NCBI GenBank assembly: GCA_036149055.1
Contig: JAYZQJ010000107.1
Location: 1 to 49,013 of the forward strand
Origin: Myxococcota bacterium
Lineage (GTDB): Bacteria > Myxococcota_A > Polyangia > Polyangiales > Sandaracinaceae
Direction of reading: 5' to 3'
DNA: 49,013 nucleotides
Shown here piece after piece: positions 8,495 to 46,389 of this stretch. Below the pieces are notes generated by a model that was not told the origin of the DNA, did no database searches, and worked only from the letters and a program-made list of their open reading frames with translations. Position 1 is the first letter of the stretch; each line of letters begins with the position of its first letter. The translations under genes and the position numbers were made by a program.

Positions 8495-8504
8495 CGGGAG
8501 CACC

Positions 8505-8828
8505 TCATTCGAAATGGACGATCTCGCCGCCCTCGACCACCCGGCCGGAGGCGATCATGGAGGTCATCACCATGACGCGGTCGGGCGCCGCGTCCAGCCC
8601 CTCCGCGAGCGCGCGCGCCAGGCCGAGCTGCAGGCGATCGACCGCCTCGTCCGACCACACGGTGGGCAGGCTCAGCCAGGCGATCGCGTCGTACGGGCGG
8701 CCCTGCTGGGCGTCGACCCGGACCAGCTGGAGCGTCATGTGCTCGGGGCCGACGCCGGCGTGGCGCGACCACGCGGTCACGAGATCGGCGTCCGGGAGGT
8801 GAGTGACGAGGCATCTCGCGATCGGCAT
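8505..8828 (-). CDS. Tautomerase/MIF-superfamily-like small protein
   Basis: Starts MPIARC (Pro-1), 107 aa, ends '...LARALAEGLDAAPDRVMVM' like tautomerase beta-alpha-beta units. Confidence 0.5.
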   Translation of the reverse strand: MPIARCLVTHLPDADLVTAWSRHAGVGPEHMTLQLVRVDAQQGRPYDAIAWLSLPTVWSDEAVDRLQLGLARALAEGLDAAPDRVMVMTSMIASGRVVEGGEIVHFE

Positions 8829-11482: not shown

Positions 11483-12653
11483 AGGACTCCTCCCGCGCCC
11501 GGACGACGGCCCGGCGCTGCGCCCGCGCTACCTGCGCGACGACGACCTGCCGTGGCTGCGCGCCCTGCTCGACGTCTTCCGCGCCCACGTCGGCCGCCCG
11601 CGCCGCGAGCTGATGGACCGGTTGCGCGAGCCGCTGCCGGTCGAGGGCCCGCCCGACAAGCGAAAGCGCGCCGTGCACGTGCTCGAGCGGCTGACCAGGC
11701 GGCGGGTGAAGGCGGCGGTGAAGCCCGGCGAGGCCCGGGCCGCGCTCTTCGGCGCCAGGGCGAAGGGGCTGACCCGGGACGAGGCCATCCGCGTCGCGGC
11801 GGAGGCGCTCGAGGTCGAGCCGACGGGGCTCCTCGAGAGCCTCTTCGCCGACCTGCCCGGCGAGCGCCGCCTCCTCGCGCTGCCCGCCGACCTCGGGCCC
11901 GATCAGCTCGCGCTCCGCACCAACCTCGCGATGGTGCAGGGCCTCGTCGCGCGCTCGCAGCGGGTGACCGTGCGCGCCCACGGCGGCGCCCGCGACCTGG
12001 TCCGCCACGCGCGGCTCATGGGGCTGCTCTGCGAGGCGCGGCCGCTGAAGGCGGGGGCGATCCTGGACCTGTCCGGGCCCTACGCGCTCTTCCGCCGGAC
12101 GCTCGTCTACGGCCGCGCGCTCGCGAGCCTGGTACCGCGCCTGCCGTGGTGCGACGACTTCGAGCTCCGGGCTGACTACCGGCTCGACGACGAGGCGCGC
12201 ACCCTGGTCGTGCAGCCGGGCGACCCGCTCTTCCCGTGCGCGGAGCCGCGGCGCTTCGACAGCAAGCTCGAGGCGCGCTTCGCCCGCGACTTCGCCCGCC
12301 TCGCGCCGGACTGGGATCTCGTGCGCGAGCCGCTCCCCCTCGAGGCGGAGGGCGCGCTGATCTTCCCCGACTTCGAGCTCGTGCACCGCCCGAGCGGGGA
12401 GCGGGTGCTGCTCGAGATCGTCGGCTTCTGGACCGAGGGCTACCTCGAGACGAAGCTCCGCCGGCTCCGGGCCGCGTCGATCGACCGGCTGGTGCTCTGC
12501 GTCGACGCCGAGCGCGCGTGCGGGCGGAGCGACTGGCCGGCGGGCGCGCGGGTGGTGCCCTACCGGCGCCGGGTCGACGTGGGCGAGGTGCTCGCGGCCA
12601 TCACTCCGCGGCCACCGGGGACTCGGCCGTGTCGTCCCCGGGAGGATCGTTGA
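11472..12653 (+). CDS. DUF790/Bax1-like endonuclease
   Basis: Overlaps the helicase stop; 'LFADL', 'SGP.ALF..T..YG..LA', 'FDSKLE..F', 'REP.P', 'IFPDF', 'LEIVGFWT..YL..K' PD-(D/E)xK-type motifs. Confidence 0.85.
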   Translation: MLPEGLLPRPDDGPALRPRYLRDDDLPWLRALLDVFRAHVGRPRRELMDRLREPLPVEGPPDKRKRAVHVLERLTRRRVKAAVKPGEARAALFGARAKGLTRDEAIRVAAEALEVEPTGLLESLFADLPGERRLLALPADLGPDQLALRTNLAMVQGLVARSQRVTVRAHGGARDLVRHARLMGLLCEARPLKAGAILDLSGPYALFRRTLVYGRALASLVPRLPWCDDFELRADYRLDDEARTLVVQPGDPLFPCAEPRRFDSKLEARFARDFARLAPDWDLVREPLPLEAEGALIFPDFELVHRPSGERVLLEIVGFWTEGYLETKLRRLRAASIDRLVLCVDAERACGRSDWPAGARVVPYRRRVDVGEVLAAITPRPPGTRPCRPREDR

Positions 12654-23696: not shown

Positions 23697-24197
23697 ATGC
23701 TGAACCAAGGCGACCCGTGCCCGCTCTGCGAAGCGGGGAAGCTGCAGCTTCGAATCCCGGAGCACCGCATCACCATCGGCGGCGTAGATGTGAAGGACCG
23801 CACCGCGACCGCGCTCGTGTGCGATGCGTGCGGCGAGGCCCTCATCACGGCCGCGCAGCGCACCCGCTACGAGCTCCGCGCCGTCGCGCTCATCCTTCGG
23901 GACGGGCGAAAGGTGAGCCCGTCCGTGCTTCGGGCCGCGCGCCGCGCGCTCGGGCTGAAGCAGTCCGAGCTCGCGCAGCTGCTGGAGACCACCGACTCCA
24001 CCATCTCCCGCTGGGAGAACGGCAAGGAGCCCGCTCGGCGTCCCGTGCAAATGGCGCTCGCCCACCTCGCCTCCGATGTGGAGCGCGGGGTGCTCGACCT
24101 CGAGGCGGCGCTCGAGCTGGCGCGGACGAGCCAGCCGCCCGAGCCGCCGTGCCTCGAGGTCGTCAAGCCCGGTCCTGAGCACGACGAAGCCGCCTGA
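23697..24197 (+). CDS. MqsA-like antitoxin (zinc ribbon + XRE HTH)
   Basis: AGGAGG RBS; CPLC...CDACGE zinc ribbon; LRAARRALGLKQSELAQLL....STISRWENG HTH. Confidence 0.85.
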   Translation: MLNQGDPCPLCEAGKLQLRIPEHRITIGGVDVKDRTATALVCDACGEALITAAQRTRYELRAVALILRDGRKVSPSVLRAARRALGLKQSELAQLLETTDSTISRWENGKEPARRPVQMALAHLASDVERGVLDLEAALELARTSQPPEPPCLEVVKPGPEHDEAA

Positions 24198-26172: not shown

Positions 26173-26832
26173 ATGTCAACGATTTGGGCACCATTCCGAG
26201 CAGAGGGCGTGGGGCGTTGGCAAACCGAAGCGTACTCCAGCGGCTGGAGTCACACGATCCACTTCAGCTCATTCGCCGGTCTCCTCGATACGATGCGCAC
26301 CCGCCACGGGCTCCGCGGCAACGTGTCGCGCCTCGGGATCGTCGCACACGGCGATCAGGACGGACAAGTGCAGCTGGAGCGCCCTCTCCGTCCCGGATCT
26401 GTGAGCCGGTTCGAGGGTGAGTGGAGGCGGCTGAGGGACTACTACCTCGAGCCGACGGCGCAACTCGTGTTTTTCAGCTGTATCGCCGGCGCTGGCACCG
26501 AGGGCAGTCGCCTGCTCGTCGAGATCTCTCGCCGTCTTCCCGGACGCACGATCATCGGGTTCACGGTCTCGGGCGAGACCTCAGCATCGGAGAACCTGTC
26601 CGCCCTGTCGGCTCAGACCCCGGGACAGGTTCGAGAAGCGCCCCACGGGCACGGCTCCGGCCGCCCGGGTCGCGCCGGTCTGCTCGCCCCTCATCACGTC
26701 GCGGCCAAGTGGGCGCGCAACGGCGCGGTCGTCCGCATACCACCGCTCGAACGCGCGCCGGGGAATCGCTGTGGCAATCCGGAGTGCCCTGGGCACGCGT
26801 TGCCCATCCACTTCTGCGAGGGGTGGGGGTGA
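26173..26832 (+). CDS. DUF4347-like protein (His-Gly...Ser-Cys motif)
   Basis: LGIVAHG...LVFFSCIAG.G..G..LL..IS..LPG..I.GF; C-terminal Cys/His cluster. Confidence 0.55.
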   Translation: MSTIWAPFRAEGVGRWQTEAYSSGWSHTIHFSSFAGLLDTMRTRHGLRGNVSRLGIVAHGDQDGQVQLERPLRPGSVSRFEGEWRRLRDYYLEPTAQLVFFSCIAGAGTEGSRLLVEISRRLPGRTIIGFTVSGETSASENLSALSAQTPGQVREAPHGHGSGRPGRAGLLAPHHVAAKWARNGAVVRIPPLERAPGNRCGNPECPGHALPIHFCEGWG

Positions 26833-26851
26833 CGGTCCTTCGACGGGCGTC

Positions 26852-29164
26852 CTACGCGTGGTCGCTCGTCTCCAGCTGCCTCTCCAGCCAGGCGAGGTCG
26901 GTCTCGAGCTTCTCGCGGCGCGCGCGCTCTCGCGCGAACAGCGCGTCGGTCTTGCGCAGCAGGAGGGTGTACGGCCTGCCCTCTCGTCGGGTCGTGTGGG
27001 TGACCGGGAGGTCGTGTTGGTCGCACTCCCGATGGATGTGCTGGCGCTTGGCCTTGGCGAGCGGCCAGGCGAGGAAGCGTGTCTCGCGGTCCGCGAGGAA
27101 CTCCCCGAGCTCACGGCAGAGCCCGCATCCACACGAGAGCTTCGCGTCGATCGCCCAGTCATCGGGATCACGAATCGGGACCGAGAGCACGCGACGGATC
27201 GCCTTGGCGAGCCCCCGGGTGGCTTTGGGGGCGCCAGCGCGTCTCCACTCGGCGGGGCTCGTCGCCTCGCGCGCCGCGCGCAGGACGTCGACGGCGAAGT
27301 GCAGGCCACCGGGCTCGCGGCTTCCCTCGACGAGGCCGTCGCGGACCGAGCGGGCGACATCCGAGGCGCCGGAGCGGGTCGCCGCGATCCAAACGGCGGC
27401 CTGCGTCTCGCGGTGGGACCCGAGCGCGTCGGTCGCTTGCTCGGCCGAGTGCGCACTATCGAGTGCGGAGCGGATCTCCTCGGCGACGTGCTCGACCTCG
27501 GCCGCGACGCGCGCGCGGAACCAGCCGACGACCGCGCGGTCCGCGGGGAGCGCGGCCGCGATCGCGGGGAGCGCGAGCTGCCACGTCGACCGGTCGCAGC
27601 GCGCCCAGCCTCCCCTCCGATCTCCCCACGCCGCGAAGCGCGCCTCGAGCCACTCCGTGCCGTAGCGCTCGAGCAGCTCGAACAGCGCGGATGGCACCGC
27701 CACGGCCTGGAGCGAGAGCGGCGCGACCCAGCTCGAGGCGAGCTCGGGGTCGTCGAGCGCGCTGGCGACGCGCAGCACGTCGGCGGCCCGCGCGTCGACC
27801 GCGGGCCCCGCGGACCAGTAGGGCAGGATCCGGCTCACCCGCCTGCGGAGCTCGGGGCGATCATCCAGCGCCTCCAACGCGGAGCGAACGGCGTAGAGGG
27901 GGTCTCGCTTCGCGCGCACGATGAAGTCGTTCGCGCGTGGCCAGAGCACGACGGCGGCGCGGCGATACCACCGATCGACGGTGTCGCCCCAGTTGCCCAT
28001 GTAGCCCTCGTGCTCGACCGCATAGGGGGTGAGCTCGTTCGTCGGGCGCGAATAGCAGAGCTCTCCCGGCTCGACGGCGGTCGGGGGAGCGTCCAGCGGG
28101 CGGTCGTCCACGTCGACCCACTCGTCGAGCGACACCGAGGCGTCGTGCAGCTCGATCAGCGGGGGGTGCTCGTCCGGCTCGACGGGGCGAGCGTACTCGG
28201 GGCCGCGCCATCCGCGGGAGTAGCTGTCGTACTCGGGCTCACAGCTCCACTTCTCGAACACCTCGGCGCTCGCGAGGCGCACCTCGAAGCCGCTGGCTGC
28301 GGACACGTCGCGGAGAAGCGCCGCGCGCTTGGCGTCCGCGCCCTTCAAGCGCCTCCAGCTCAGGCTCTGCGGCGTGTACTCGTGGTCGAGGAGAACCACG
28401 AGTCGGTCCGGACACGCCTCCCGCCCTCGCCAGTCGATGGGCACCGGCGTTTCGAAGTGATCTTTCAGGAGCTCGCGCAACGCGTCGGTCGTGCCTCCGT
28501 CGGGGGCGGCGTGCTCGGGGGCGCCTTCGAGGGTCAACGCGTAGGTCAGGGCTACGCGGTTGCCGCGCTCGACGGGGCGCACCTCGTGCTCACAGTCGGC
28601 GTAGAACGCGATGAACGTCAGCTCCCTCTTGGAGCCGCCGCCGACCGTCACCTCCTCCCCCTCGTGGCGGATGACCGAGGCGCCACCCTCGAAGGTCGAG
28701 GGCACGAGCACGACCATCGTCGCGACCATCCCGCTGACCTTCTCTGCATCCCGGTGTGGCAGAAAGAACTGACCCTTCTCGTAGACGAGCATGTCGTGGA
28801 GGTGGGCCTTCAGCCGCGTCCCCGCCGGGAGGCCCAGCTCGCGGTGAGCGCGCTCGAGTGCCGGGGCCATCGTCTTGCGCCACCGGTGCCCGAGCTTCAC
28901 GCGGCTCTTGGCGATCACCCAGGTGTCCCGCACGCTTCGATCGAGCAAGGTCTCTTCGCCGCGCCCGAATCGCGCGGGTCGAGCCACCGAGCGGAGCGTC
29001 CGGACCGTGGCCGCGGGTACCGGGAGCCGGAGAGCACCGACGCCGCGGATCTCCAGCGCGAGGTCACCCGCGGGCGCGCGCCAGTGCGCAGCGAAGGGGC
29101 CGCGCGCCGCGGAGCCGCCCAACAGATCGTGCAGCTCCTCGTGGATGACGGATTCGTCCTGCAT
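26852..29164 (-). CDS. Large 2OG-Fe(II) oxygenase-domain protein
   Basis: LVYEKGQFFLPHRD (HxD), AFYADCEHEVRPV..G.R, EGYMGNWG, C-terminal CGCGLC. Confidence 0.88.
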   Translation of the reverse strand: MQDESVIHEELHDLLGGSAARGPFAAHWRAPAGDLALEIRGVGALRLPVPAATVRTLRSVARPARFGRGEETLLDRSVRDTWVIAKSRVKLGHRWRKTMAPALERAHRELGLPAGTRLKAHLHDMLVYEKGQFFLPHRDAEKVSGMVATMVVLVPSTFEGGASVIRHEGEEVTVGGGSKRELTFIAFYADCEHEVRPVERGNRVALTYALTLEGAPEHAAPDGGTTDALRELLKDHFETPVPIDWRGREACPDRLVVLLDHEYTPQSLSWRRLKGADAKRAALLRDVSAASGFEVRLASAEVFEKWSCEPEYDSYSRGWRGPEYARPVEPDEHPPLIELHDASVSLDEWVDVDDRPLDAPPTAVEPGELCYSRPTNELTPYAVEHEGYMGNWGDTVDRWYRRAAVVLWPRANDFIVRAKRDPLYAVRSALEALDDRPELRRRVSRILPYWSAGPAVDARAADVLRVASALDDPELASSWVAPLSLQAVAVPSALFELLERYGTEWLEARFAAWGDRRGGWARCDRSTWQLALPAIAAALPADRAVVGWFRARVAAEVEHVAEEIRSALDSAHSAEQATDALGSHRETQAAVWIAATRSGASDVARSVRDGLVEGSREPGGLHFAVDVLRAAREATSPAEWRRAGAPKATRGLAKAIRRVLSVPIRDPDDWAIDAKLSCGCGLCRELGEFLADRETRFLAWPLAKAKRQHIHRECDQHDLPVTHTTRREGRPYTLLLRKTDALFARERARREKLETDLAWLERQLETSDHA

Positions 29165-29227
29165 CGCGGCGCAGCATAGCCGGGAGCCCCGTCGATGGAG
29201 CCTGCGTCCGCGCTATGCTCGCTCGCC

Positions 29228-30351: not shown

Positions 30352-31248
30352 ATGAGCGGGATGGCTTGGGAGCCGGTGGAGCGGTGGCCGGGGGACGCGG
30401 GCGGCGAGGGGGCGTTTCGCTCCGGGGCGGAGCCGGCGCTCGCGTCGCGGGGGGCGCCTTCGCCGTGGGAGCGAGTGAGGCTCTTCTGGTTCTCCTCGCC
30501 GGAGCTGCCGCTCGAGCACGTGGCCCGGCGCGCGGTGCTGACGTCGTCGTTCGTCTACGTGGAGCGCATGACCGGGCGGCGGGAGCGGGTGCGGCGCGCG
30601 ATGCTGCGCGGGTTCCGGCGCGAGGGCGGGCGGCTGATCGTCGGGGTGGTCGACGGGGAGGATCTCGTCTTGCCCTTCCGCGTCGGCTGCGCGCTCCAGG
30701 CGCAGCTCCTCGCGCAGCTCGGGGGGAAGGCCGGCGAGCGCTGGGTCGGGTGGCAGCACGTCCGGCTCGGCGCGGCGTCCTCGGTCACGGCGGGGCTCGC
30801 CGCGTGGACCCTGCTCGCCGCGATCCGCCCGGAGATGGTCCGCGCGCACTGGGCGCTCGAGCTCTACACGTCCGAGACCTGCCTGCGCGCGTACTTCGGG
30901 GTCGGCCTGGCCCTCGTCGCGCTCGCCCTCCTGCTCTGGGTGCCGATGCGGGTGCGGGTCGACCCGCTCGGGGTGGAGGTGCGGCGCGGGCTGGTGCCCT
31001 GGCTGCCGTTCTTCCTCCCCGCCGAGCGCGTGGCCGCGGTCGTGGTGAACGAGCGGCGCAGCAAGGTCCGCGGACGGGAACAGTTCTTGTTCTACGCGGT
31101 GGAGCTGCGCTTCGATCCACCGACCCGCCTCGCCTCCCTCACCCGCCGCTCCGCGCTGCCGCTCCGCCGACACGACAACCGCGCGATGAAGTCGACGCCG
31201 AACGCCGAGGCCGCGCGGCTGCGCGAGCTGCTTCGACTCGACGTTTGA
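30352..31248 (+). CDS. Hypothetical membrane protein (PH-like domains possible)
   Basis: Two TM helices flanked by beta-rich segments; start uncertain (30349-30361). Confidence 0.6.
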   Translation: MSGMAWEPVERWPGDAGGEGAFRSGAEPALASRGAPSPWERVRLFWFSSPELPLEHVARRAVLTSSFVYVERMTGRRERVRRAMLRGFRREGGRLIVGVVDGEDLVLPFRVGCALQAQLLAQLGGKAGERWVGWQHVRLGAASSVTAGLAAWTLLAAIRPEMVRAHWALELYTSETCLRAYFGVGLALVALALLLWVPMRVRVDPLGVEVRRGLVPWLPFFLPAERVAAVVVNERRSKVRGREQFLFYAVELRFDPPTRLASLTRRSALPLRRHDNRAMKSTPNAEAARLRELLRLDV

Positions 31249-31275
31249 AGGGTTATCCCCGTTCGGGGACGCCTC

Positions 31276-31300
31276 GCCGCGCGGCGGTCGCGGCTTTTTT
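31276..31300 (+). terminator. Rho-independent terminator
   Basis: GCCGCG-N7-CGCGGC stem followed by TTTTTT, 28 nt after the stop at 31248. Confidence 0.65.
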
Positions 31301-31380
31301 GCTTTCCCGATCCGCGTGGGCATTCTCCCGACAACGCGACGCCGGGGGCGCTGGGGCGGCGCGGTGTGGGTGAGTAACAA

Positions 31381-32067
31381 GTGTTTACATCGAACGAGCA
31401 GAGTCAATCCTGGACCCTCTGGCGTCTCGACTGGGCGTCCCTCTGCCCCGTCGCGCTCGGCGGGGGAGTGACGGCGGCGCCGATCGGCGTGGAGGACGCC
31501 CTCGCGTTCATGGGGGCGCACTACGCCGAGGCGTTCCGGTCCGACGCCGCCGATCACCGCTTCTTGCCGGATCCGATGACGCCGGCGAAGCGGCGCTTCC
31601 TCGCGCAGTCGGACCGGATCGCGTTCCGCGACGGCGACCGGGTGGTCGGCCTCCTGGTCGGCAACCCGGTCGACTGGAGCACGTACTACTGGCGCACGGT
31701 CGCGTTCCTGCCCGAGTACCAGGGGCGGGGCCTGCTCGCGGCGCTGCTCGCGCACACCGACCGCCTGATGGCCGCCCACGGGGTGGTCCGGGTCGAGGGC
31801 GAGTGCGCGCCGACCAACTACCGGCAGCTCCGATTGCTGCTGCGACTGGGCTACGTGGTGACCAGCACGGTCACCAGCGAGCGCTGGGGCGCGATGCTGC
31901 GCCTCACGCGCTTTCTCGACGAACAGGCGGAGGAGGCGTTCGTGGATCGATACAGCAAGGACGCCGGCCTGCCGCGTGGACCATCCCCCGAACCCCAGCC
32001 CCGAGGAGGACGTCATGAAGAAGTTCGCGACCGCGTGTTTCTGAGCGCTGCGAGGAGCGCGCGATGA
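31381..32067 (+). CDS. GNAT-family N-acyltransferase
   Basis: AFLPEYQGRGL acetyl-CoA-binding motif, 'P.N...LLLRLGY'; the last ~30 aa are low-complexity and overlap the small ORF. Confidence 0.85.
   Translation: MFTSNEQSQSWTLWRLDWASLCPVALGGGVTAAPIGVEDALAFMGAHYAEAFRSDAADHRFLPDPMTPAKRRFLAQSDRIAFRDGDRVVGLLVGNPVDWSTYYWRTVAFLPEYQGRGLLAALLAHTDRLMAAHGVVRVEGECAPTNYRQLRLLLRLGYVVTSTVTSERWGAMLRLTRFLDEQAEEAFVDRYSKDAGLPRGPSPEPQPRGGRHEEVRDRVFLSAARSAR
32015..32044 (+). CDS. Putative 9-aa precursor peptide MKKFATACF
   Basis: GAGGAGG SD at 32003-32009, 5 nt before ATG AAG AAG TTC GCG ACC GCG TGT TTC TGA; in a different frame from the GNAT; directly upstream of the HO-like and YcaO genes. Confidence 0.6.
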   Translation: MKKFATACF

Positions 32068-32759
32068 TCGCCGCGGCCCTGAAGCGCGACATCGAGCGCT
32101 ACGCGGCGGGCATGCACCGCACCAACCCGCTCTACGTGGGGGCGGCCACCGGGCGGCTCACGCCCGAGGTGGTCGCCTACTACCTGAGCAACGTGCGACA
32201 CCTCGTGCAGCACACCCCGCTGCACCTCGAGCGGGCGCGTCGGCGCGCTCGCGCGCTCGGCCGGGACGACCTGGCCGCGCACTTCGCCGAGAAGCTCGTG
32301 GAGGAGCACGGCCACGATCGCTGGGCCGACCAGGATCTCGCGCTCCTCCGCGAGCGCTTCGGGAGCGAGGCGGTCGGCGCGCTCGCGCCCGCGCTGCTCA
32401 CCCAGCTGCGCTGGATCGAGGCGCTGATCGACCGCGATCCGGCGCTCTACCTCGCCTACATCCTCTTCGCCGAGTACCTCATCGTGCTGATGGGGCCGAC
32501 GTGGCTGGCGCTGATCGAGGAGCGCTGCGGCATCCCGCGGCGCATGTTCTCGGTGATCGGCAACCACGCCGAGCTCGACGCGGAGCACGCCGACGAGGGG
32601 CTCGACGCCATCGACGCGATGGTCACCGACCCCGCGCTGATGCGACCGATGCGCGAGACGACGGCGCGGGCGATCGCGCTCTTCGAGCGCTGGTCGGGCG
32701 AGGTCGTCGCCCACGGATACCGGGAGCCGGAGTCATGGACCGCCGCCTCCTGCGCCTGA
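32064..32759 (+). CDS. Heme-oxygenase-like diiron oxidase (HDO; PqqC/CADD/TenA-like fold)
   Basis: EEHGHDRW, AEY and HAELDAEH metal-ligand pattern; ATGA coupling to the GNAT stop. Confidence 0.82.
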   Translation: MIAAALKRDIERYAAGMHRTNPLYVGAATGRLTPEVVAYYLSNVRHLVQHTPLHLERARRRARALGRDDLAAHFAEKLVEEHGHDRWADQDLALLRERFGSEAVGALAPALLTQLRWIEALIDRDPALYLAYILFAEYLIVLMGPTWLALIEERCGIPRRMFSVIGNHAELDAEHADEGLDAIDAMVTDPALMRPMRETTARAIALFERWSGEVVAHGYREPESWTAASCA

Positions 32760-33766
32760 GCCGAGCGCTCCCGCTCCCCGCCGGGTGGAGCGCGCCCGAG
32801 CTCTTCGCCGACACCGTCGCCCTCGAGGGGGCGCGCGGGCGGGTGGAGGTGCGCCGGGCCGGCCTCCAGGCGCGCGGCCCCGACGGGACCGAGGCCACCG
32901 GCAGCGCGGCCGAGCTCGACGGGGATCCGCTGCCGCGGGCCTGGTACGAGCTGCTCGAGCGGGTGGCCATCGTCGAGGCGACCGGAGCCCCGCGGCCCCG
33001 GGTCGACGCGGGCGGCCACCCGACCGGCGCCTTCCACGTGTCGGCGCCGGCACGGGGTAAGGGCGCGCGGCGGGCGGCCCGCTCCAACGGGGTCGCGCTG
33101 CACCGCTCGTTCGAGGCGGCCCGCGACGCGGCTCGGCGCGAGCTGGTCGAGCGCGATCTGGTGCTCGGCAGCTGGTACGGGGAGCTCCCCCTGCGCCGCG
33201 GCGTCTGCCCGGCGCGGCTCGCGCCGTTCACCGGTCACGACTGGGAGGTCCGGCTGGTGCGGGACCCCGACGGGGTCGCCCCGGATCTCGTGGCCGCGGT
33301 GGTGGTCGGCTTCCCCCGGCGGAGCACCGTCCCCCTGGCCCGCGGGTTCGCCGCTGCCCCCGACGCCCACGCCGCGGCGGACGCGGCCGCGCGCGAGGCC
33401 CTCCAGAACCTGGCGTTCCTCTGGGACGAGCCGGTGCCCGTGGCCGCGCCGACCCCGTCGCCGACGCCGTTCTTCCACCTGGACTACTACCTGGTCCCCG
33501 CCCACCACGAGGCGCTGCGGGCCTGGCTCGACCGGGACGCCGCGTCGTCGCGACCGCGACCCCGAACCGGACCCCGAACCGGACCCCGAGCCGGGCGTCG
33601 ACCCGGGCGCACGGCGGGCGCGGTGAGCTACGTCGACTTGACGCCGGCCTGCCTCTCCGGGGCGGCGCGGGTGGTGCGGGCAGTGGCAACATCGACCCGG
33701 CCGCTGGTGTTCGGGCCGGCCGCGCCGCCCGTCGCCCCGACTTTCTGCGTGCATCCGATCGCCTGA
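32735..33766 (+). CDS. Compact YcaO-family protein
   Basis: GSAA...RAWYELLER, SNGVALH, A.RELVERD ATP-binding motifs, A.REALQ, C-terminal HPIA; GGAG RBS. Confidence 0.8.
   Translation: MDRRLLRLSRALPLPAGWSAPELFADTVALEGARGRVEVRRAGLQARGPDGTEATGSAAELDGDPLPRAWYELLERVAIVEATGAPRPRVDAGGHPTGAFHVSAPARGKGARRAARSNGVALHRSFEAARDAARRELVERDLVLGSWYGELPLRRGVCPARLAPFTGHDWEVRLVRDPDGVAPDLVAAVVVGFPRRSTVPLARGFAAAPDAHAAADAAAREALQNLAFLWDEPVPVAAPTPSPTPFFHLDYYLVPAHHEALRAWLDRDAASSRPRPRTGPRTGPRAGRRPGRTAGAVSYVDLTPACLSGAARVVRAVATSTRPLVFGPAAPPVAPTFCVHPIA
33558..33593 (+). repeat. 12-bp tandem repeat x3 within YcaO
   Basis: GACCCCGAACCG GACCCCGAACCG GACCCCGAGCCG. Confidence 0.85.
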
Positions 33767-33808
33767 CCCTCTTCAACCCCCTCGCGATCTGGTAGCTTCG
33801 CGTGGCCC

Positions 33809-36800
33809 GTGCAGGTAGGGGAGCCGCGCATCCGGATCGACGAGGTCGAGCTCCACGAGGAGCTCGGCTGGGGCGCGACCTCCGTCGTGCGTCGCGGCGT
33901 GCGCCGCGGGAGCTCGGTCGCGGTCAAGATCGCGCGCGGCGGCGGGCGGGCGGCGCGCTGGTTCCGTCGCGAGGCCGCGGCCCTCGCCCGCGTCGATCAC
34001 GAGGGCTTGCCGCGGGTGCTCGAGGTCGGCGAGTCGGACGGAGTCCCGTGGCTGGTCATGGAGCTCGTCCGGGGGCCGACGCTCGCCGAGCGGCTCGCCG
34101 AGGGGCGGCCGCCCGAGGGCGAGGCGCTCTCCCTGGCTGTCGCGATCGCCGACACGCTCGACGCGGTGCACCGGCGCGGCGTCGTGCACTGCGACGTCAA
34201 GCCGCAGAACGTGGTGCTCGACGGGGGCGACCGCGTGCGGCTGGTGGACTTCGGCTTCGCGACCCCCGAGCGGCTCTCGCCCGAGGGCGCCGGCACGCCG
34301 CCCTACGCGGCCCCCGAGCAGACGCGCGGCGCCCGCCTCGTCGACGCCCGCACCGATCTCCACGCGCTCGGCCGCGTGTTGCTGGAGTGCCTGACCGGCG
34401 ATCCGCTCGCCGACCTCGACTCGGTCCCCGCGCCGCTCGCGGTGGTCCTCGGGGGGTTGCTCGCGCCCGAGCCCGCCGATCGCTACCCGAGCGCCCGCGC
34501 GGTGGTCGGCGAGCTGGAGCGCCTGCGCGCCGGCGAGGCGCCGCTCGGCCCGGCGTCGCCGCTGCACCCCGCCGTCGAGGCGTTCGCGCTCGTCGGCCGG
34601 GACGCCGAGCTGGCCCGGCTCCGCGAGCTCTGGCGCGGCAGCAGCGCGGGCTGGGGCGAGGTGGTGCTGGTCGAGGGCCCGCGCGGCGCCGGCAAGAGCC
34701 GCCTCGTGCGCGAGCTGGTGCGGGAGATCGAGGCCGAGGGCGGCCGCGTCATTCACCATGCTTGCGCCGAGAACGACCCGCGGCCGCTCGCCGCGCTGCG
34801 CGCGATCTTCGAACAGGCGGCCGCCGCCCTCCGGCGCGACGAGGCCGCCCGGGCCGACCTGCGGGGGCGCCTCGGGCCCGACCTCGCGGCGTTCGCCGGG
34901 GTGCTCTGCCCGGAGCTGGCCGAGCTGCTCGGGGCCGACGCGAGCTACGACGCCGGGCTCGGGGCCGAGGCCTTCACCCAGGCGGTCGCCGACCTCGTGC
35001 TCGAGCTCGCCGCGTCCCTCGGCCCGCTCTGCGTGGTGGCCGACGACGGGCAGTGGATGGACCGCACCAGCGCCGAGGTGCTGACCCGGGTGGCCGATCG
35101 CATCGGCGCGACCCGTCTCCTGCTCGCGGTCGCGACCCGGGCCGGCGAGGGGCGCACGAGCCCCGCGCTGCCGCGGCTGGTGTTGACCCCGTTCGACGGC
35201 GGGCGGACGGCGGCGCTGGTCTCCGCCCACCTCGGGCACGCGGTGAGCGAGGAGCTGGTCGCCTGGGTGGCGCGGGTCTCCGACGGCACGCCGCTCGGCA
35301 TCGTCGAGGTGCTCGACGCGATGCTCGACGCGGCGACCCTCCGCCCGGTGGACGAGGTCTGGCGCTTCGACCGGGCGCGGGCTGAGCAGATGCACCTCCC
35401 GCGCGGCGCCCTCGCCCTGATGGAGCGCCGGGTGGGCGCGCTGCCCCCGGCGGCGCGGCGCGTGTTCGAGTCGGCGGCGCTGCTCGGGCGCCGCTTCGAC
35501 GCCGAGGTGCTGGCCGACCTGCACGCGCTCTCGCTCGACGATCTGGAGTTCGCGCTCGCCGACGCGCGCCGGGCCGGCCTGGTGGAGGCGGACGCGCCGG
35601 GCGGCCACCGCTTCGTGCACGACGCGGTGCGGGAGGCGCTGCTCGCGGGGCTGGACGACGAGACCCGCGCGACCCTCAACCAGCGCATCGCGCGCTGCCT
35701 CGACGGCCGCGGCGGCGCCTCGCCCTTCACCCTGGCCGCGCACTACGCGGCCGGGCGCCCGCGGGAGGATCGCGGCCGGCTGCTCGACGTGGCCGAGGAC
35801 GCGCTCGCGCAGCTCATCGAGGACCACGACGACGAGGCGGCGCTCCGGCTCTTCGACGCGATCGCGGCCTCGATGCCCGACGCGGTCTCCCGCCTCGAGG
35901 TCTTCGCGGGGGAGGCGGCGACCCGCCTCGGTGACGGCAAGCGCGCGCTCCGGCACTTCGAGAGCGCGCTCGACTCCACGCTCGCCCCCGATGAGCGGGC
36001 GCGGCTGCGCGGCCGCCGCGCCTGGGTGCACCAGCAGGCCGGGGACGCCGACGCGGCCTGGGCCGAGCTCGAGCGCGCCTTCTACGAGCTGGGCGAGCGC
36101 ATGCCGGTGGAGAGCCCCCGCGCGGTCGCCGGCTCGGCGTGGCGGCTCGCCCGGGCCGAGGCGGGCCCGCCGGCCAGCGGGCGCGAGGCGGAGCGGCTCT
36201 CGGTGCTCTGCGACCTCCACTACCAGAACGTCCGGCTCGGCGAGGAGTACGAGAAGCCGCTCCGGCTGATCCAGAGCACCGCCCGCGCCTACGCGCTCTC
36301 GCGCCGCCTGCCTCCGTCGGCCGCCCGGGCCCGGAGCGAGGCCCTGGTCGCGACCGCGCTCGCCATCCTCGGCCGGCGAGACGCGAGCACGCGGCACGCC
36401 GAGGAGGCGATGCGGATCGCGCGGGGGCTCGGGCGACCTCCGGTGCTCGCCTTCTGCGAGCAGATGCGCGCCATGGCCAGCTACTTCGGGGGCGACTTCG
36501 ACCGCGGCCTCGATCGGCTCCACGACGCCTTCGGGCGTCACGAGCGCTGGATGGAGGCGGCCGAGCTCTGCCTCTTCGCCGTTGGCGTCTACACCATCGA
36601 GGCGATCCGAGGTCAGTATCGCTACGCGCCGGCGATGCTCCGCCGCAGCCTCTCCCGGGCGCGCCGTCTGCACGCGCCGCCGCCGGCTCTGGTGCTCGCC
36701 GAGCACTGCGAGCGCGCCTCCGAAGCGACGCTCACCGGGGTGGCTGCGCTCGCGCCGCGCGCGGCCCTCTCGGGCTTCAACCGTACCGCGGCCTGGGGAC

Positions 36801-39001
36801 CGATCACTCACGCGTTCCTGGAGCTCGACGAGCTCGGGCCGGAGCTCGAGGCGCACCTGGCGGAGTTCGACGCCCTGGGCCTCTCGCCGCGCACCGCGCA
36901 CCCGGTCGTGTTCGAGCACTACGTCTCGCTCGCGTACATTCGCCTGCGCCAGGCCACCCGCGGCCCCGACCGACGCGCGCCGCTGCGGGCCCTGAAGCGG
37001 GCGCTGAAGGACGTGCGCGCCGCCGCGCGCTTCCCGCTCTTCCGCGCCCACGCGCTGGTGCTGGAGGGCGCGGTGCGCTGGCTCGAGGGCGACGCCGGCA
37101 AGGCGCGCGCGCTCCTCGCCGAGGCCGACGCGATCGCCGACGCGGAGAGCTGCCTCTGGGCGCGCTTCGAGGCGGAGCGCCTCCGGGCCCACATGCTGCG
37201 CGCCGAGGGGCGGCGAGACTCTGCCCGGCAGCGGGCCTCGCTCGCGCTCGCGATCGCGCGGGAGGCGAAGGCGGCGGCCTGGGAGCGGCTCGTGCGCGGC
37301 GAGTTCGAGCTGCCGCGCGCGTCGAGCGCCCGCGGCACCAGCATCGCCACCTCGCAGGCGTCGCATCGCCGGCAGCTGCAGACGCTCTTGCACATCTTCG
37401 AGGTCGCCACCCGGCAGCCGGCGGTGGAGGAGCAGGGGCGCCTCTTCCTCGACGAGGTGATGGACTCGCTCGCCGCGACGCGCGGCCTCCTCGTGTTCGA
37501 CGCGGAGTCCTCGCGGGACGCCACCCTCCTCACCGCGCGTCAGCGCGCGGCCGAGTGGCCCGATCCGCCCCCCGAGGTGCGCGCGCTGATCGACGGCGCG
37601 CGCGAGGCCGGCATGCCGCGGAGCAGCGGCGAGTCGGACGACGCGCCGCGCGCGGTGGCCGTCCCGCTCTGGCTCCGGGGCCGGGTGGTCGGCGGCGTCT
37701 ACCTCGAGCGCGACGGCGACGAGCCTCCCTTCGAGGAGGAGGACTTCGACGTCCTCTTCGCGCTCTCCTACCAGGTGTCGGTCGCGCTCCAGCTCGCGCG
37801 CACGATGCGGGACCGGGAGCGCCTCGAGCAGTCGCTGCGGCAGGCGCAGAAGATGGAGGCGATCGGCCGGCTCGCCGGAGGCATCGCCCACGACTTCAAC
37901 AACATGCTCACGGTGATGGTCGGCACGATCCAGCTCCTCTCGCGCAAGGTCGACTCGGCCGACGCGGGGCGCGAGGTGGACATGCTCGCGCAGGTCACCG
38001 ATCGCGCGAGCCGGCTGACCAACCAGCTCCTCGCCTTCTCGCGGCAGTCGAGCACCCAGCTCGAGGTCTTCGACGTCGACGACACCCTCGAGGCGCTCGC
38101 GCCGATGCTGCGCCGCCTGATCGGCGATCAGGTGCGCGTGGTGCACGAGCGCGGCGAGGGCGGAAAGCGCGTGCACCTCGACCGCGGGCTGCTCGACCAG
38201 GCGGTGGTCAACCTCGCCCTCAACGCGCGCGACGCGATGGAGGGCGGCGGCCGGCTCGTGCTGCGCAGCCGGGGCGAGGCGGGCCGGGTGCTGATCGAGG
38301 TGGAGGACGACGGCGCCGGCATGAGCCGCGAGGTCCGCGAGAACGCGCTCGAGCCGTTCTTCACCACCAAGGAGCGGGGCAAGGGCACGGGCCTCGGCCT
38401 GGCGATGGTCTACGGCTTCGTGGAGCAGTCGGGGGGCACGCTCGAGATCGACAGCGAGCTCGGGCGGGGCACCCTCATCCGCATCGCCTTCCCGGAGACC
38501 GAGGAGAAGCCGGCGCTCCGCTCGCTGGTGATCTCCAACTCCAAGGAGCCGGAGGCGTTCCGGGCGACCCGCTCCGGCGAGATGCTGCGCACGACGGTGC
38601 TCGTGGTCGACGACGACCCGCTGGTGCTCCAGACCCTCGCGCTCGGCCTCGAGCCCGAGGGCTACCGGGTGGTCGCCGCGGAGACGCCCGACCAGGCCCT
38701 CCGCCTGGCCGACGCGCTCGACCGGGTCGACGTCATCGTGAGCGACGTGATGATGCCCGACATGAACGGGCCGGAGCTGGTCGACGCCCTCGCCGAGGTG
38801 GTGCCCGAGGCGGCGGTGCTCTTCGTGTCCGGTTACGCGGACACCGAGCTCCGTGAGACCATGGACCTGAAATCACGGAGCTTTCTCCGGAAACCGTTCC
38901 GCCCGGAGCAGCTCTGCGAGGCGGTCCGGGACACGCTCAGGCGGCGCCGCGAGTCCGACGGAATCCAAGCTGAGCGGATTCCAGTCGAAAATGGGACTTA
39001 A
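33809..39001 (+). CDS. Hybrid Ser/Thr kinase - AAA ATPase - GAF - histidine kinase - receiver protein
   Basis: [25 protein letters not shown] '[16 protein letters not shown]'; H-box [48 protein letters not shown]. Confidence 0.92.
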
Positions 39002-43277: not shown

Positions 43278-44735
43278 TCAGCCGTAGGCGCGGGTGGGGC
43301 TGCCGTCGGCGAGGGCTCGCTCGGCGGCGCCGCGCACGGCCGGGGACTCGTCTTCGGTGGAGGCGACGAGCGACGCGTCGAAGACGTGCGCGCCGATCTT
43401 GCCCATCGCGTCGACCGCGAGGAACCGGATGTGCGGGTCCTCGCTCAGGCGATCCTGCTCGAGGCGCCGCGCGATCGCCCGCTGGAGCTCGTCGTTGGTG
43501 GTGCTCTTGTAGCGGGTGACGAGCCGGGCGTAGACGGCGCGGTTCGCCGCGACCCGGCTGTCGCTCAGGTCGCGATCAGGCGCCGGGGTCGGCGTGGGCG
43601 CGCGAGGCTCCTCGACCCGCTTCGGGGCCACGTCGGAGACGCGCCGGGGGCGCTCGCGCTCGCTCGCGACGCCTTCGAGCTGCCCGAGGTCGAGCTCGGG
43701 GAGGCGCCGCGCCTTCTGCTTCAGGCCGAGCGCCTCGGACGCCGTCTCGGTCACGAGGTCTTCGACGCGGCGCGGGAGGGCCGCGGCCGACGCGATCACG
43801 CGGACGCGAGGCGGGGCGCCGTCCGGGGCCCGCCGCACCGCGACGTCGACGCACGCGCCGTGGGTCTCGGTGCGCCAGTGCTCGCGCAGGTGATCGAGGA
43901 GCCGCACCGGGGTGGACTCGAGGGTCGGCTTGTCCGCCTCGACGAAGATCGCGAGGTCGCTGACGTCGGCCGCGTCGACGCCCGAGGCGAGCACCGGGTT
44001 GTCGTCGAGCGCGTCCCGCACCGCCGCCTCGACGTCCTCGGCGCCGAGCCCGCGCAGGTCGGCGGCGCCGAACGAGACGAGGCCGCCCACGGTGAGCAGG
44101 TCGCGCAGCCGCTCGGGCGGCAGCCCGCGGAGCGTCGTGCCCGGCTCCGCCTCCCGCAGCAGCCCGTCGAGCGGCTCGAGGATGCGCTCGTTGGCGCGGT
44201 CGTGCAGGTCGAAGATCGACACGTCGCTCACCTGCTCCGAGACCCGCGCGCCGTCGACGAGGATCAGCCCGTCGGGCTCGACGTGGGTGAGCGCCCGGAG
44301 CGCGCGCAGGGCCTCGACCTTGCGCGCGACCGGCTCGCCGTCCGGCGGCAGGGTGGCGAGCACGATCACCGGCGTGCGCTTGTCGTCGAGGGCCTCGACC
44401 AGCGCGTCCACCGCCGAGCCGGTGCGCCCGCCGAGGCACGCCATCACGAGGATCGCGTCGGCGTCGCGGCTCTCCATGCGCACGAGATCGTCGACCCGGC
44501 GGGCGTGCTCGCGGACGAGGCGCCGCGCCTGATCGGGGCTCTCGGCCGCCTCCCGATCGTGCCCGAGCACGTGACAGCGCTCGCGCGGCAGCTGCGGCTG
44601 CGCGTCCGCGGCCTCCCGGCTCGCGTGGAGGGCGAGGGCGGGGTGACCCCGCCGGCTCCACTCGGCGGCGAGGCGCCCTCCGCCTTTGCCCCATCCCACC
44701 GCGACGACCTGCAGCACGTGCTCTCTGGATCCCAT
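43278..44735 (-). CDS. Divergent FtsZ/tubulin-fold protein with C-terminal HEAT-like domain
   Basis: VVAVGWGKGGGRLA (T1-like), ACLGGRTGS (GGGTGS-like), LATLP..GE, LILVDG, AN..I; C-terminal 'RFLAVDAMGKIG...DESPAVRGAAERAL'. Confidence 0.72.
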   Translation of the reverse strand: MGSREHVLQVVAVGWGKGGGRLAAEWSRRGHPALALHASREAADAQPQLPRERCHVLGHDREAAESPDQARRLVREHARRVDDLVRMESRDADAILVMACLGGRTGSAVDALVEALDDKRTPVIVLATLPPDGEPVARKVEALRALRALTHVEPDGLILVDGARVSEQVSDVSIFDLHDRANERILEPLDGLLREAEPGTTLRGLPPERLRDLLTVGGLVSFGAADLRGLGAEDVEAAVRDALDDNPVLASGVDAADVSDLAIFVEADKPTLESTPVRLLDHLREHWRTETHGACVDVAVRRAPDGAPPRVRVIASAAALPRRVEDLVTETASEALGLKQKARRLPELDLGQLEGVASERERPRRVSDVAPKRVEEPRAPTPTPAPDRDLSDSRVAANRAVYARLVTRYKSTTNDELQRAIARRLEQDRLSEDPHIRFLAVDAMGKIGAHVFDASLVASTEDESPAVRGAAERALADGSPTRAYG

Positions 44736-44877
44736 GCCCGGGTGCACAGCAATCGGCGATCCAGCCGCCGATCCCGTGGCGCGGGCCCCGATCGACGGAA
44801 CACGGCGCGCGCCTCGCTCCCCGCGCCGCGCGCGGTGCTCCGCTTCCGTGGGCGAGCGCCGTGCTACATCCACCCTC

Positions 44878-46389
44878 GTGACGCTCCGCGCCTCGCTGGC
44901 CCTCCTGCTCCTGTTGGCCCCCGGCCTCGCTCGCGCGCAGGGCGTGACCGAGGAGGTCGAGGCGGGCGGCATCTTCGTCCCCGAGCTCGAGGAAGAGGAG
45001 GAGACGCCCGAGCCCGAAGAGGAGGAGGAGGCGCGCCGACCGCTGGTCATCGAGCTGCCGCCGCCGCGCGAGCTCGACGGGCCCATCGCACCGGCGCCGA
45101 TCACGTTCACCCTGGAGAACGGCCTCCGGGTGATGCTCCAGCCGATCGAGGGGCGGCGGTTCAGCGCGGTGGCGATGACCTACCACGTCGGCTCCGCCGA
45201 TCAGCCGAGCGGCTGGACCGGCCTCGCGCACCTGACCGAGCACCTCATGTTCGCCGGCACCGACGTGCTGAACGAGGTCGAGGTGTTCATGCGGCTCGAG
45301 GCGGCCGGCGCGGTGGAGCGCAACGCCGAGACGAGCCCGGACCGCACCATCTACTACGAGGTGCTCCCGAGCGCGCAGCTCGAGTGGGCCTTCTGGATCG
45401 AGGCGGAGCGGCTGGCCCGCATGCTCGCCGGGCTGACCGAGGCGCGCCTCGACCGGCAGCGACAGATCGTGCTGCACGAGGGGTTCGAGCGAGGCATCTA
45501 CGGCTGGCGGGGGCTGCTCGCGCAGAGCCTCTTCCGCGGCGTCTTCCCAGACGGGCACCCCTACGCGCAGCCGGTGATCGAGCGCGAGGAGGACGTGCGC
45601 GCGGTGCGCCTGCGCCACGTGCAGAGCTTCTTCCAGCGGCACTACGCGCCGGACAACGCGACCCTCAGCGTGGTCGGCGGCTTCGACCCCGAGGTGATCC
45701 GCGCCTCGATCGAGCGCCACTTCGGGCCGATCCGGCGCAGCGCCCCCGCGCCCGACGCGCCCCGCCCCGACCCGGTCGCGCCCCTCGACCACGAGCGCCA
45801 GATCCTGCTCGAGGTGCAGCACGACCGCGACCAGGTCTACGTCGCCTGGCCGACGCCCGCGCTCTACGCCGCCGGGGACGCCGAGCTGGACGTGCTCTCC
45901 ACGCTGATGGGGCGGCGACGGACCGCGCCGGTGCGCGACGCGCTGGTGGAGAGCGGGCTCGCGCTCGAGGCGCTCGTGCAGCAGCGGAGCTACCGCGACG
46001 CGTCGCTCTTCACCATCCAGGCGGTGCCGGCCCCGGGGCACGACGCGGCCGAGCTGGTGCGGGCGATCGACGAGGCGCTGGCGCGGGTGCACGAGGCGCC
46101 GTTCGACGAGGAGGCGGTGCGGGAGGCCCGCGAGATCTGGGCGCGCCGCGAGCGGCTCCGGGTGGAGGACCTCGCCACCCGCGCGATCCACCTCGGCACG
46201 GCCACCGACGCCTACGTGCCGACCCTCGAGAACGAGCGGCAGCGCTACCTCGCGGTCGACGCCGAGGCGGTGCGGCGCACGGTGCAGCGCTGGCTCCCGC
46301 AGGGCCGGCGGCTGGTGATGATCGCCCGGGCGGAGCCGAGCGGCGCGCCCCAGGGCCGGGTCATCCTCGACCGACGGAGGCCCCAGTGA
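44878..46389 (+). CDS. M16 family zinc peptidase (catalytic subunit)
   Basis: Signal peptide, TLENGLRV, YHVGSAD, GLAHLTEHLMF (HxxEH), NAET..DRT.YY, HPY, Y.PDNA.L.VVG. Confidence 0.92.
   Translation: MTLRASLALLLLLAPGLARAQGVTEEVEAGGIFVPELEEEEETPEPEEEEEARRPLVIELPPPRELDGPIAPAPITFTLENGLRVMLQPIEGRRFSAVAMTYHVGSADQPSGWTGLAHLTEHLMFAGTDVLNEVEVFMRLEAAGAVERNAETSPDRTIYYEVLPSAQLEWAFWIEAERLARMLAGLTEARLDRQRQIVLHEGFERGIYGWRGLLAQSLFRGVFPDGHPYAQPVIEREEDVRAVRLRHVQSFFQRHYAPDNATLSVVGGFDPEVIRASIERHFGPIRRSAPAPDAPRPDPVAPLDHERQILLEVQHDRDQVYVAWPTPALYAAGDAELDVLSTLMGRRRTAPVRDALVESGLALEALVQQRSYRDASLFTIQAVPAPGHDAAELVRAIDEALARVHEAPFDEEAVREAREIWARRERLRVEDLATRAIHLGTATDAYVPTLENERQRYLAVDAEAVRRTVQRWLPQGRRLVMIARAEPSGAPQGRVILDRRRPQ

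Follow-up and report, generated by a model that had tools for sequence, protein, structure and literature searches.

In a 49,013-nt stretch of DNA from a Myxococcota bacterium of the family Sandaracinaceae (contig JAYZQJ010000107.1, positions 1 to 49,013, assembly GCA_036149055.1; hereafter the window), we analysed an operon that encodes a GCN5-related N-acetyltransferase (GNAT), a heme-oxygenase-like diiron oxidase (HDO) and a YcaO enzyme, and that also holds a 9-codon open reading frame (ORF) for the peptide MKKFATACF. Comparison with homologous loci establishes, as far as sequence evidence goes, that this small ORF works as a translated gene with a product that matters and that it belongs with this YcaO subfamily; most likely it supplies the starting material for a new and very small peptide that enzymes modify. 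We think it probable that the locus is a minimal YcaO-dependent pathway for a peptide that is ribosomally synthesized and then post-translationally modified (RiPP), in which an azoline would be formed at the penultimate residue, the HDO and the GNAT would tailor the product, and a dedicated sensor would serve the system.

Conservation of the small ORF and its peptide

Homologous loci from genomes and metagenomes were pooled into a set of 113 (the window, L002-L006 and L013-L119, some contigs being reached twice), and 106 of them carried a short ORF of the same type. All seven loci without it are contig ends, with 1-94 nt left past the GNAT gene or with the upstream sequence missing. An earlier note on this DNA had named a Shine-Dalgarno (SD) site with a short MKK-type ORF as the feature to look for in homologous loci, and had regarded its general absence as grounds for giving up the idea of a peptide system; it is found wherever a contig end does not cut it off. 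The search pattern was fixed as an M-[K/R/N]-[K/R/N/M] start, an [F/Y/H]-[A/V/S] pair and four more residues, with the last four positions free. Since this pattern was written after the first examples had been seen, the conserved features of the head hold by construction.

The loci were reached from three anchors. When 41 related genomes were searched with the HDO, each of the six loci obtained (6/6) had, between the GNAT and HDO genes, an SD site followed by a 9-codon ORF. The YcaO anchor, a 34-sequence alignment, gave 27 loci from species-representative genomes, with hosts in Sandaracinaceae, Polyangiaceae, Labilithrix and Polyangiales and among metagenome-assembled genomes labelled Oligoflexia and Bdellovibrionales; the small ORF was present in all 26 loci containing the upstream region, the 27th beginning inside the YcaO gene. 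The GNAT alignment found 116 relatives on metagenome contigs, the best 80 of which were used, and every locus with enough sequence past the GNAT gene again had the small ORF. The 111 small ORFs collected in this way stand in 103 different DNA contexts and encode 88 different peptides, and an SD-like word was located at most 16 nt upstream in 110 of the 111. When the whole 9.9-Mb genome was read in all six frames, one match was obtained to the motif M-K-K-(x)-[F/Y]-A-x-x-[C/S/T]-x-stop, at the small ORF.

The majority of the 88 distinct peptides, 56, have 9 residues, another 31 have 10, and one has 16, and their consensus is M-K-K-(x)-F-A-x-x-[Cys/Ser/Thr]-[mostly Phe/Leu]. Counted from the C-terminus, position -8 is Lys in 87 peptides, position -7 is Lys in 74 and Arg in 9, position -6 is Phe in 80 and Tyr in 7, position -5 is Ala in 86, and positions -4 and -3 are variable. 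The penultimate position, -2, is Thr in 35, Cys in 34 and Ser in 19, and hence one of these three residues in 88 of 88 peptides, even though it was free in the search pattern; six SD-less background matches from the same loci showed L, K, L, W, W and T there. The last position is most often Phe (32) or Leu (26), followed by Val (9), Ile (7) and Ala (5), with S, M, W, T and N being rare. In the peptide of the window, MKKFA corresponds to the conserved head, residues 6-7 to the variable positions, Cys8 to the penultimate residue and Phe9 to the C-terminal hydrophobic one. The earlier note had taken both the Thr and the Cys of TAC as cyclodehydration targets; the conservation speaks for Cys8 and drops Thr6, whose position holds Thr in 26 of 88 peptides and is not conserved.

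Codon usage was compared in the 103 contexts, from genomes of about 70% G+C. The conserved Ala is encoded by GCA in 32, GCT in 25, GCC in 23 and GCG in 21, Phe by TTC in 66 and TTT in 28, Lys by both AAG and AAA, and the three residue types of the penultimate class by 11 codons. Translation would start at ATG (91) or GTG (12), and all three stop codons are used. This synonymous codon variation shows, as read from the DNA, that selection acts on the peptide rather than on its nucleotide sequence.

Variation between close strains was assessed with the metagenome contig L040, whose GNAT, HDO and YcaO are 96%, 99% and 95% identical in amino acids to those of the window, with 95 differing alignment columns over 2386 nt. 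Fifteen of these 95 fall within 31981-32080, where the peptide core and the spacer are located, and 18 within 32981-33080, corresponding to a poorly conserved loop of the YcaO (residues ~83-115), and the GNAT and HDO genes mostly show 0-4 differences per 100 nt. The last bin of the comparison, with 25 differences, possibly reflects an alignment end effect. The YcaO loop may contact the substrate and co-vary with the peptide core. Contigs from four RNA-seq libraries of two studies also span the small ORF, at 95-99% identity, and they encode Gly-Ser or Gly-Thr at positions 7-8 in place of the Ala-Cys of the window, as read by hand from difference tables; across these three allele pairs the Cys/Ser/Thr class is always kept. 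These contigs are compatible with transcription of the small ORF without being proof of it, and their depth, which cannot rank genes or show transcript ends, was left unused for expression levels and boundaries.

In most loci the stop codon of the GNAT gene overlaps the start of the small ORF as ATGA. In the window's clade, the GNAT frame runs through the small ORF and the GNAT tail there is not conserved; in the window itself the small ORF sits within the last ~17 codons of the GNAT gene, in a different frame, and in a third frame with respect to the HDO gene. The small-ORF family has been overlooked because gene callers skip a 30-bp gene, which in this clade also lies inside another ORF. The distance to the HDO gene has a median of 75 nt and ranges from 8 to 412 nt in 84 loci, being 8-19 nt in the window's clade. 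In 58 of 99 contexts the 70 nt that follow the small ORF form strong structure (z below -2 against mononucleotide shuffles; median z -2.87), and GC-rich hairpins are visible 3' of it in several loci. A hairpin behind the gene is an arrangement also seen with precursor genes. Tandem small ORFs with differing cores occur three times over in L063 and L107 and twice in L105, the gene order of L063 being peptides-HDO-YcaO-GNAT. The invariant Cys/Ser/Thr, the hypervariable positions before it, the tandem cores and the hairpin would fit a RiPP precursor with a cyclodehydrated penultimate residue.

Two other explanations of the small ORF were rejected. Its use as the N-terminus of the HDO through frameshift or read-through is ruled out by the frames, the 8-412-nt spacing and the intervening hairpins. 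The GNAT tail over the small ORF is ruled out as a constrained element, since in most loci the GNAT ends at the ATGA shared with the small ORF and its tail shows no conservation.

The enzymes and the co-inherited signalling protein

The earlier note had described three tightly coupled genes, with an ATGA overlap at 32064 and a 25-nt overlap at 32735, and a small ORF MKKFATACF before the oxidase. The couplings are exact in the sequence, the TGA of the GNAT gene (32065-32067) overlapping the ATG of the HDO gene (32064-32066) and the HDO and YcaO genes sharing 25 nt, and the small ORF lies where expected behind GGAGGA (Table 1). A further gene begins 42 nt after the YcaO stop. Because a terminator-like hairpin closes the upstream gene, the operon starts with the GNAT gene. 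G+C content of the window is 74%, and the names of its close homologues point to Sandaracinaceae in the class Polyangia. An Rfam scan of 31000-34200 gave no family at the gathering score; Guanidine-II and SAH matches in it were sub-threshold, lay within coding sequence and were taken as chance.

The YcaO protein is recognised by Pfam (PF02624, 43.5 bits against a cut-off of 25.7, E = 3.4e-11) and, below threshold, by the NCBIfam model TIGR03604 of the SagD family (34 bits against a cut-off of 219, 1.5e-8). Invariant throughout 34 sequences are the motifs ELLER, RSNGVA, ELVERD and EAxQ and, at the C-terminus, HPI[P/A]; the first four we take to be the ATP/Mg ligands of YcaO enzymes, and the acidic and SNG motifs align with TruD and LynD. 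Foldseek ranks 1-40 for the AlphaFold2 model (pLDDT 92) were all YcaO structures, headed by Methanopyrus kandleri YcaO (TM 0.60) and followed by E. coli YcaO, LynD and McbD, and a profile search of the PDB placed TruD, LynD and MusD (2e-6 to 2.5e-4) above thioamide-forming archaeal YcaOs (5.5e-3, 9.8e-3). Motifs and model together show a complete and probably active enzyme. A whole-genome search showed it to be the only YcaO of its genome. TfuA (PF07812) had no match in the 96%-complete genome, although a control genome gave one, and an FMN azoline dehydrogenase of the SagB type was found neither among the conserved neighbours nor among the window genes, no genome-wide search for it having been made. 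Complex prediction for YcaO with GNAT (score 0.00, mark 0.32) spoke neither for nor against binding. A 515-aa YcaO homologue, P0123, was tried as a fused-domain protein and rejected, the YcaO domain alone being found in it and its start being probably over-called.

The HDO matches Haem_oxygenas_2 (PF14518) at 30.7 bits against a cut-off of 28.9 (E 3e-7). Its 3-His/3-carboxylate set, E80/E81-x2-H84, E137 and H168-x3-D172-x2-H175, is invariant or at least 90% conserved and presumably binds the metals, an assignment we make by analogy. The best match in a PDB profile search, and the closest solved relative, was 3dde (9.5e-16), a structure without assigned function; UndA and CADD matched weakly. 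L026, L032 and L058 hold an HDO remnant of ~150 aa with the N- and C-terminal helices kept and both His motifs gone, which may have a non-catalytic structural role or be in early decay. Of the 5 distinct peptides encoded where a full HDO is lacking (L026, L032, L058, L083/L084, L087), 4 end in Ala or Val, compared with 8 of 61 with a full HDO. This hints that the HDO acts on a bulky C-terminal residue, and it is a hint only, because the loci without a full HDO amount to about three lineages.

The GNAT was assigned by Pfam to Acetyltransf_1 (PF00583, 39.8 bits against a cut-off of 20.7, E 6e-10) and has a conserved N-terminal extension; an alignment of 22 orthologues showed the invariant motifs DWS[T/S]YYxR and SERWG. 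Its AlphaFold2 model (pLDDT 84) matched Ard1, RimI, SpeG and RimJ at a Foldseek probability of 1.00, and of these nearest folds Ard1, RimI and RimJ are N-alpha-acetyltransferases. The acetyl-CoA loop, Q/R-x-x-G-x-G/A, reads Q-G-R-G-L-L in the window, and R-x-R-x-[ILV] or other variants in many orthologues.

The gene behind the YcaO encodes a 1730-aa protein with, in order, a Ser/Thr kinase domain (Pkinase), AAA_16 (a STAND NTPase), a helical region, GAF, HisKA-HATPase and a receiver domain; its orthologues have TPR at the long helical region. In 17 loci the gene that comes directly behind the YcaO gives a full-length match to its first 1250 residues, with 36-45% identity and 452-702 bits, compared with 110 bits, in the kinase domain only, for the best paralogue of its own, kinase-rich genome. 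In 4 of 5 genomes the C-terminal GAF-histidine kinase-receiver part likewise had its top match where expected, in an open frame of 1810-2330 codons, and the fifth is a contig end. By these matches the protein is, in Myxococcota, an orthologous and co-inherited fifth component, and we propose that it is a sensor or regulator of the peptide system. The loci of the Oligoflexia type differ: L033, L038 and L039 have a histidine kinase with an OmpR-type regulator, L037 has a 7TMR-DISM kinase with an M16 peptidase, and L021 has a PAS-histidine kinase-receiver protein.

Further genes were observed apart from this. The M16 (insulinase-type) peptidase of the Oligoflexus locus L037 follows the sensor kinase at 7115-8524, and another lies at 44686-46389 of the window, 11 kb downstream; since the loci in general do not keep this pairing, nothing supports a connection with peptide processing. 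A second Pkinase-AAA_16-TPR protein of 1206 aa (window 4399-8019) and a 905-aa nSTAND1 NTPase with a C-terminal OmpR-type DNA-binding domain (window 103-2820) are paralogous in architecture to the operon sensor; neither is an orthologue.

Co-occurrence was counted in loci that have a GNAT match and enough downstream room. The HDO accompanied the GNAT in 61 of 67 loci, the exceptions being the three remnant loci above and L083, L084 and L087, where it is absent, and the YcaO did so in 49 of 50. The one exception, L109, ends 756 nt upstream of the GNAT gene, in the gap where the YcaO lies in the alternative gene order of L035 and L036; gene order also varies in L021 and L063. The kinase was present in 34 of 41 loci. 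No GNAT was found within 4 kb in the Oligoflexia-type loci L033 and L037, a profile search included. Since GNAT or HDO is missing in some lineages, the peptide and the YcaO form the constant core. The minimal GNAT-HDO-YcaO operon of the earlier note thus keeps its three enzymes and its peptide, and has to be amended in that the giant kinase is conserved downstream and that HDO and GNAT are each dispensable.

As for distribution, an even sample of 401 genomes from the phylum contained the GNAT profile in 4, and among 41 close relatives, with the window's genome counted in, 6 have a strong HDO orthologue. Among 1.84 billion representatives, 465 clusters (50% identity) matched the YcaO profile at E <= 1e-30, and nearly all of the best 150 clusters listed are 300-360 aa long. 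According to these counts the module is patchy and accessory, yet not rare in environmental data.

Table 1. Features of the operon in the window, and corresponding features of homologous loci (positions in the latter given after the locus number).
Feature	Position	Strand	Remark
Terminator-like hairpin with T-run, end of upstream gene	31276-31304	+	2 overlapping sites; 0.5 expected in shuffles
GNAT ORF	31381-32067	+	228 aa; Pfam Acetyltransf_1
Shine-Dalgarno GGAGGA of small ORF	32004-32009	+	read in the sequence; 5 nt 5' of ATG
Small ORF MKKFATACF + TGA	32015-32044	+	9 codons; putative precursor peptide
HDO gene	32064-32759	+	231 aa; heme-oxygenase-like diiron oxidase; Pfam Haem_oxygenas_2
YcaO gene	32735-33766	+	ATG at 32735; 343 aa, compact, stand-alone; Pfam YcaO
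Giant signalling protein gene	33809-39001	+	1730 aa; domain search and orthology
Tandem small ORFs	L063:2086-2262, L105:2059-2184, L107:1887-2211		most copies with own SD site; each core different
HDO remnants	L026:3565-4008, L032:438-878, L058:~4700-5110		open frame

Elsewhere in the window, positions 10145-12653 hold an XPB/ERCC3-like helicase with a damage-recognition domain and then a DUF790 protein, a conserved-looking pair, and 23697-24197 encodes a 166-aa protein matching the MqsA antitoxin and HTH_3. At 26771-29179, one piece of ~2.3 kb is covered by long ORFs in both directions, of 802 aa (plus strand) and 770 aa (minus strand). The minus-strand gene is preferred for its codon-position G+C and its match to a 2OG-Fe(II) oxygenase, and the plus-strand ORF is probably a high-G+C artefact.

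Proposed chemistry and alternative readings

In the pathway that we consider probable, the YcaO would recognise the short head K-K-F-A directly, without an RRE (RiPP recognition element) partner, and would use ATP to activate the carbonyl of residue 7, that is, the backbone amide before residue 8. Attack by the penultimate Cys, Ser or Thr, through its side chain, would then give a thiazoline or (methyl)oxazoline, with a loss of 18 Da, beside the C-terminal Phe or Leu. Where present, the HDO would carry out an O2-dependent oxidation near the C-terminus, either of the azoline to an azole (-2 Da) or of the C-terminal residue, possibly as an oxidative decarboxylation. The GNAT would acylate an amine, at the peptide N-terminus or on a Lys, or else would provide self-protection by acting on the amine of a processed fragment. 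The co-inherited sensor, replaced by a two-component pair in the Oligoflexia-type loci, might sense the product or control the operon.

Several points weigh against this pathway. Each of its chemical steps is one that we infer, and homology leaves azoline, thioamide and other chemistry undecided, because the closest folds are those of thioamide-forming archaeal YcaOs. Most azoline-forming YcaOs require an E1-like or RRE partner, and no E1-like/Ocin-ThiF or RRE domain was found in the three enzymes or in the conserved neighbours. The earlier note had seen no E1/RRE partner, TfuA, flavin dehydrogenase, protease or exporter in the operon, and this extends to the homologous loci, across which none of these, including any dehydrogenase, protease or exporter, is conserved. 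Acetyl transfer by the GNAT, and its acyl donor, are uncertain because the acetyl-CoA loop is degenerate in many orthologues. The link to the sensor is one of gene neighbourhood only. In the window, the small ORF overlaps the GNAT frame and leaves 19 nt to the HDO gene. Finally, MKK starts are common in small, well-translated ORFs, and part of the role of the conserved head may be in translation and not in recognition.

An alternative that we hold to be unlikely begins with the same activated amide and departs from it at the next step: the azoline or ester intermediate would be hydrolysed, in an ATP-dependent peptidase reaction of the kind reported for a MusD-type YcaO, to release a C-terminal [Cys/Ser/Thr]-[Phe/Leu] dipeptide, which the HDO would oxidise and the GNAT would N-acylate, so that the real product would be a small amino-acid-derived molecule built on a ribosomal peptide. 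It explains the invariant Cys/Ser/Thr equally well and makes a dedicated protease unnecessary; moreover, the nearest GNAT folds acetylate alpha-amines, the YcaO matches MusD, a structure with the title 'YcaO-mediated ATP-dependent peptidase activity', in both sequence and fold, and characterised HDOs work, according to their reports, on free amino acids or small molecules. However, the head and residues 6-7 would be mere scaffold, although residue 7 lies in the spot that is hypervariable between strains. Since the HDO and the GNAT are each absent in some lineages, they cannot both be essential to the product, which also speaks against a dipeptide finished by the two. We regard it as very unlikely that the YcaO makes some other backbone change, a thioamide or an amidine, with the Cys/Ser/Thr serving, for example, as the site of GNAT acylation or HDO oxidation. 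The best fold match is to Methanopyrus kandleri YcaO, which we take to form thioamides and to work without TfuA, so that the absence of TfuA would not exclude thioamidation; the profile, however, favours the azoline-forming TruD, LynD and MusD over thioamide-forming YcaOs, and interchangeable Cys, Ser and Thr are the classic signature of a cyclodehydration nucleophile.

Two further readings take the peptide out of the chemistry. The small ORF could be a regulatory leader peptide that controls the hairpin and hence the expression of HDO and YcaO, which would then use another substrate. Short conserved nascent peptides can regulate downstream genes, a structured element lies behind the ORF in 58 of 99 contexts, and the ATGA overlap couples the small ORF translationally to the GNAT in most loci. 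We nevertheless find this quite improbable: the 8-19 nt to the HDO gene in the window's clade leave no room for an attenuator, tandem copies with different cores would be unexpected of one, a class of three residues spelled by 11 codons suits enzyme chemistry better than ribosome stalling, and the Rfam scan offered no family to support it. We also see hardly any chance that the enzymes modify a protein, such as the neighbouring kinase, or a small molecule, in which case the nonapeptide would serve without modification as a signal, or be an inhibitor or an accessory factor. Proteins are known partners or substrates of YcaO enzymes, for example ribosomal protein S12 and McrA; the GNAT has weak RimI-like matches, and the kinase is strictly co-inherited in Myxococcota. 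Against this, unrelated sensors replace the kinase in Oligoflexia-type loci where peptide and YcaO persist, and the invariant Cys/Ser/Thr of the peptide would be left unexplained.

Returning to the modified peptide with a penultimate azoline, made by a YcaO without partner and tailored by the HDO and the GNAT, we think it possible, if somewhat doubtful, that the nonapeptides are strain-specific signals, or pherotypes, of predatory Myxococcota and Oligoflexia, each read by its dedicated co-inherited sensor, which would be either the cytoplasmic Ser/Thr-kinase/STAND/GAF/His-kinase protein or a two-component pair.

Significance and relation to known systems

If the proposed pathway is correct, the locus represents a new RiPP family with the shortest known YcaO substrate, 9-10 residues with a head of about five; a YcaO could then locate its site without an RRE or E1-like partner, and heme-oxygenase-like diiron enzymes would enter ribosomal-peptide chemistry. 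If the pherotype interpretation also holds, Gram-negative social bacteria would possess a RiPP-based system of self-recognition or quorum, and a heme-oxygenase-like diiron enzyme would for the first time have a ribosomal-peptide role. Co-inheritance of the sensor offers a handle on what the orphan kinase/STAND proteins of myxobacteria sense, and the rule x-x-[C/S/T]-[hydrophobic] after K-K-F-A makes the system testable with synthetic peptides. Literature searches, with most subscription journals outside their coverage, returned no description of the gene set or the peptide motif and no HDO acting in a ribosomal-peptide pathway, in agreement with the earlier note, which had not recognised the architecture as a described RiPP class.

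The azol(in)e-forming YcaO systems (microcin B17 of the TOMM/linear azole peptides, the cyanobactin enzymes TruD/LynD, bottromycin) resemble the present one in the ATP/Mg motifs of the YcaO, in having a peptide gene in the operon and in the Cys/Ser/Thr site, and bottromycin is made with stand-alone YcaOs. They differ in that the precursor here is 9-10 aa long with a head of about five residues, compared with tens of residues, that the modified site is single and always penultimate, that the partners are an HDO and a GNAT, and that the E1-like/RRE partner, FMN dehydrogenase, leader protease and exporter are missing from the present loci. Pheromone systems with a cognate sensor kinase, namely agr (AgrD/AgrB/AgrC), ComX/ComP and nisin (NisRK), likewise combine a gene for a small modified peptide, a modifying enzyme and a dedicated, co-inherited sensor kinase, and share the pherotype-like variation of the core; they belong to Firmicutes and use membrane sensors and exporters, whereas here the protein is a cytoplasmic one of 1730 aa in Myxococcota, with putative sensing and no exporter seen in the loci. 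The oxidases UndA, CADD, BesC, SznF and AetD share the fold family and the six-ligand motif of our HDO, but their reported substrates are free amino acids, fatty acids or small molecules.

Small modified peptides of the Trojan-horse type, with a GNAT for self-immunity, are a further parallel. Microcin C has a 7-aa precursor, MccA, and the acetyltransferase MccE. In trifolitoxin, the YcaO-like TfxE is proposed to make a thiazoline and the neighbouring GNAT TfxH is reported to acetylate the processed peptide, protecting the producer (10.64898/2025.12.02.691738). The trifolitoxin group, or tiarins, also yields a small modified peptide, but it has a nitroreductase-like TfxB/TfxC pair and precursors of 23-65 aa with a conserved Gln, none of which is found here; the present loci likewise hold neither an aminoacyl-tRNA synthetase gene nor an exporter. 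The biarylitides, including myxarylin of myxobacteria, are reported to be made from a 5-aa precursor with a P450 (PMC13417212, PMC12951456, PMC12002111). They are similar to the present system in an ultrashort precursor that evades gene calling, a minimal cluster and myxobacterial hosts, and differ in that the P450 makes a biaryl cross-link, whereas YcaO, HDO and GNAT accompany a 9-10-aa precursor with another motif here, and no P450 was found in the window or the homologous loci. Ultrashort precursors and the pairing of a YcaO with an immunity GNAT are therefore already known, and none of these systems shares the defining parts of the present one.

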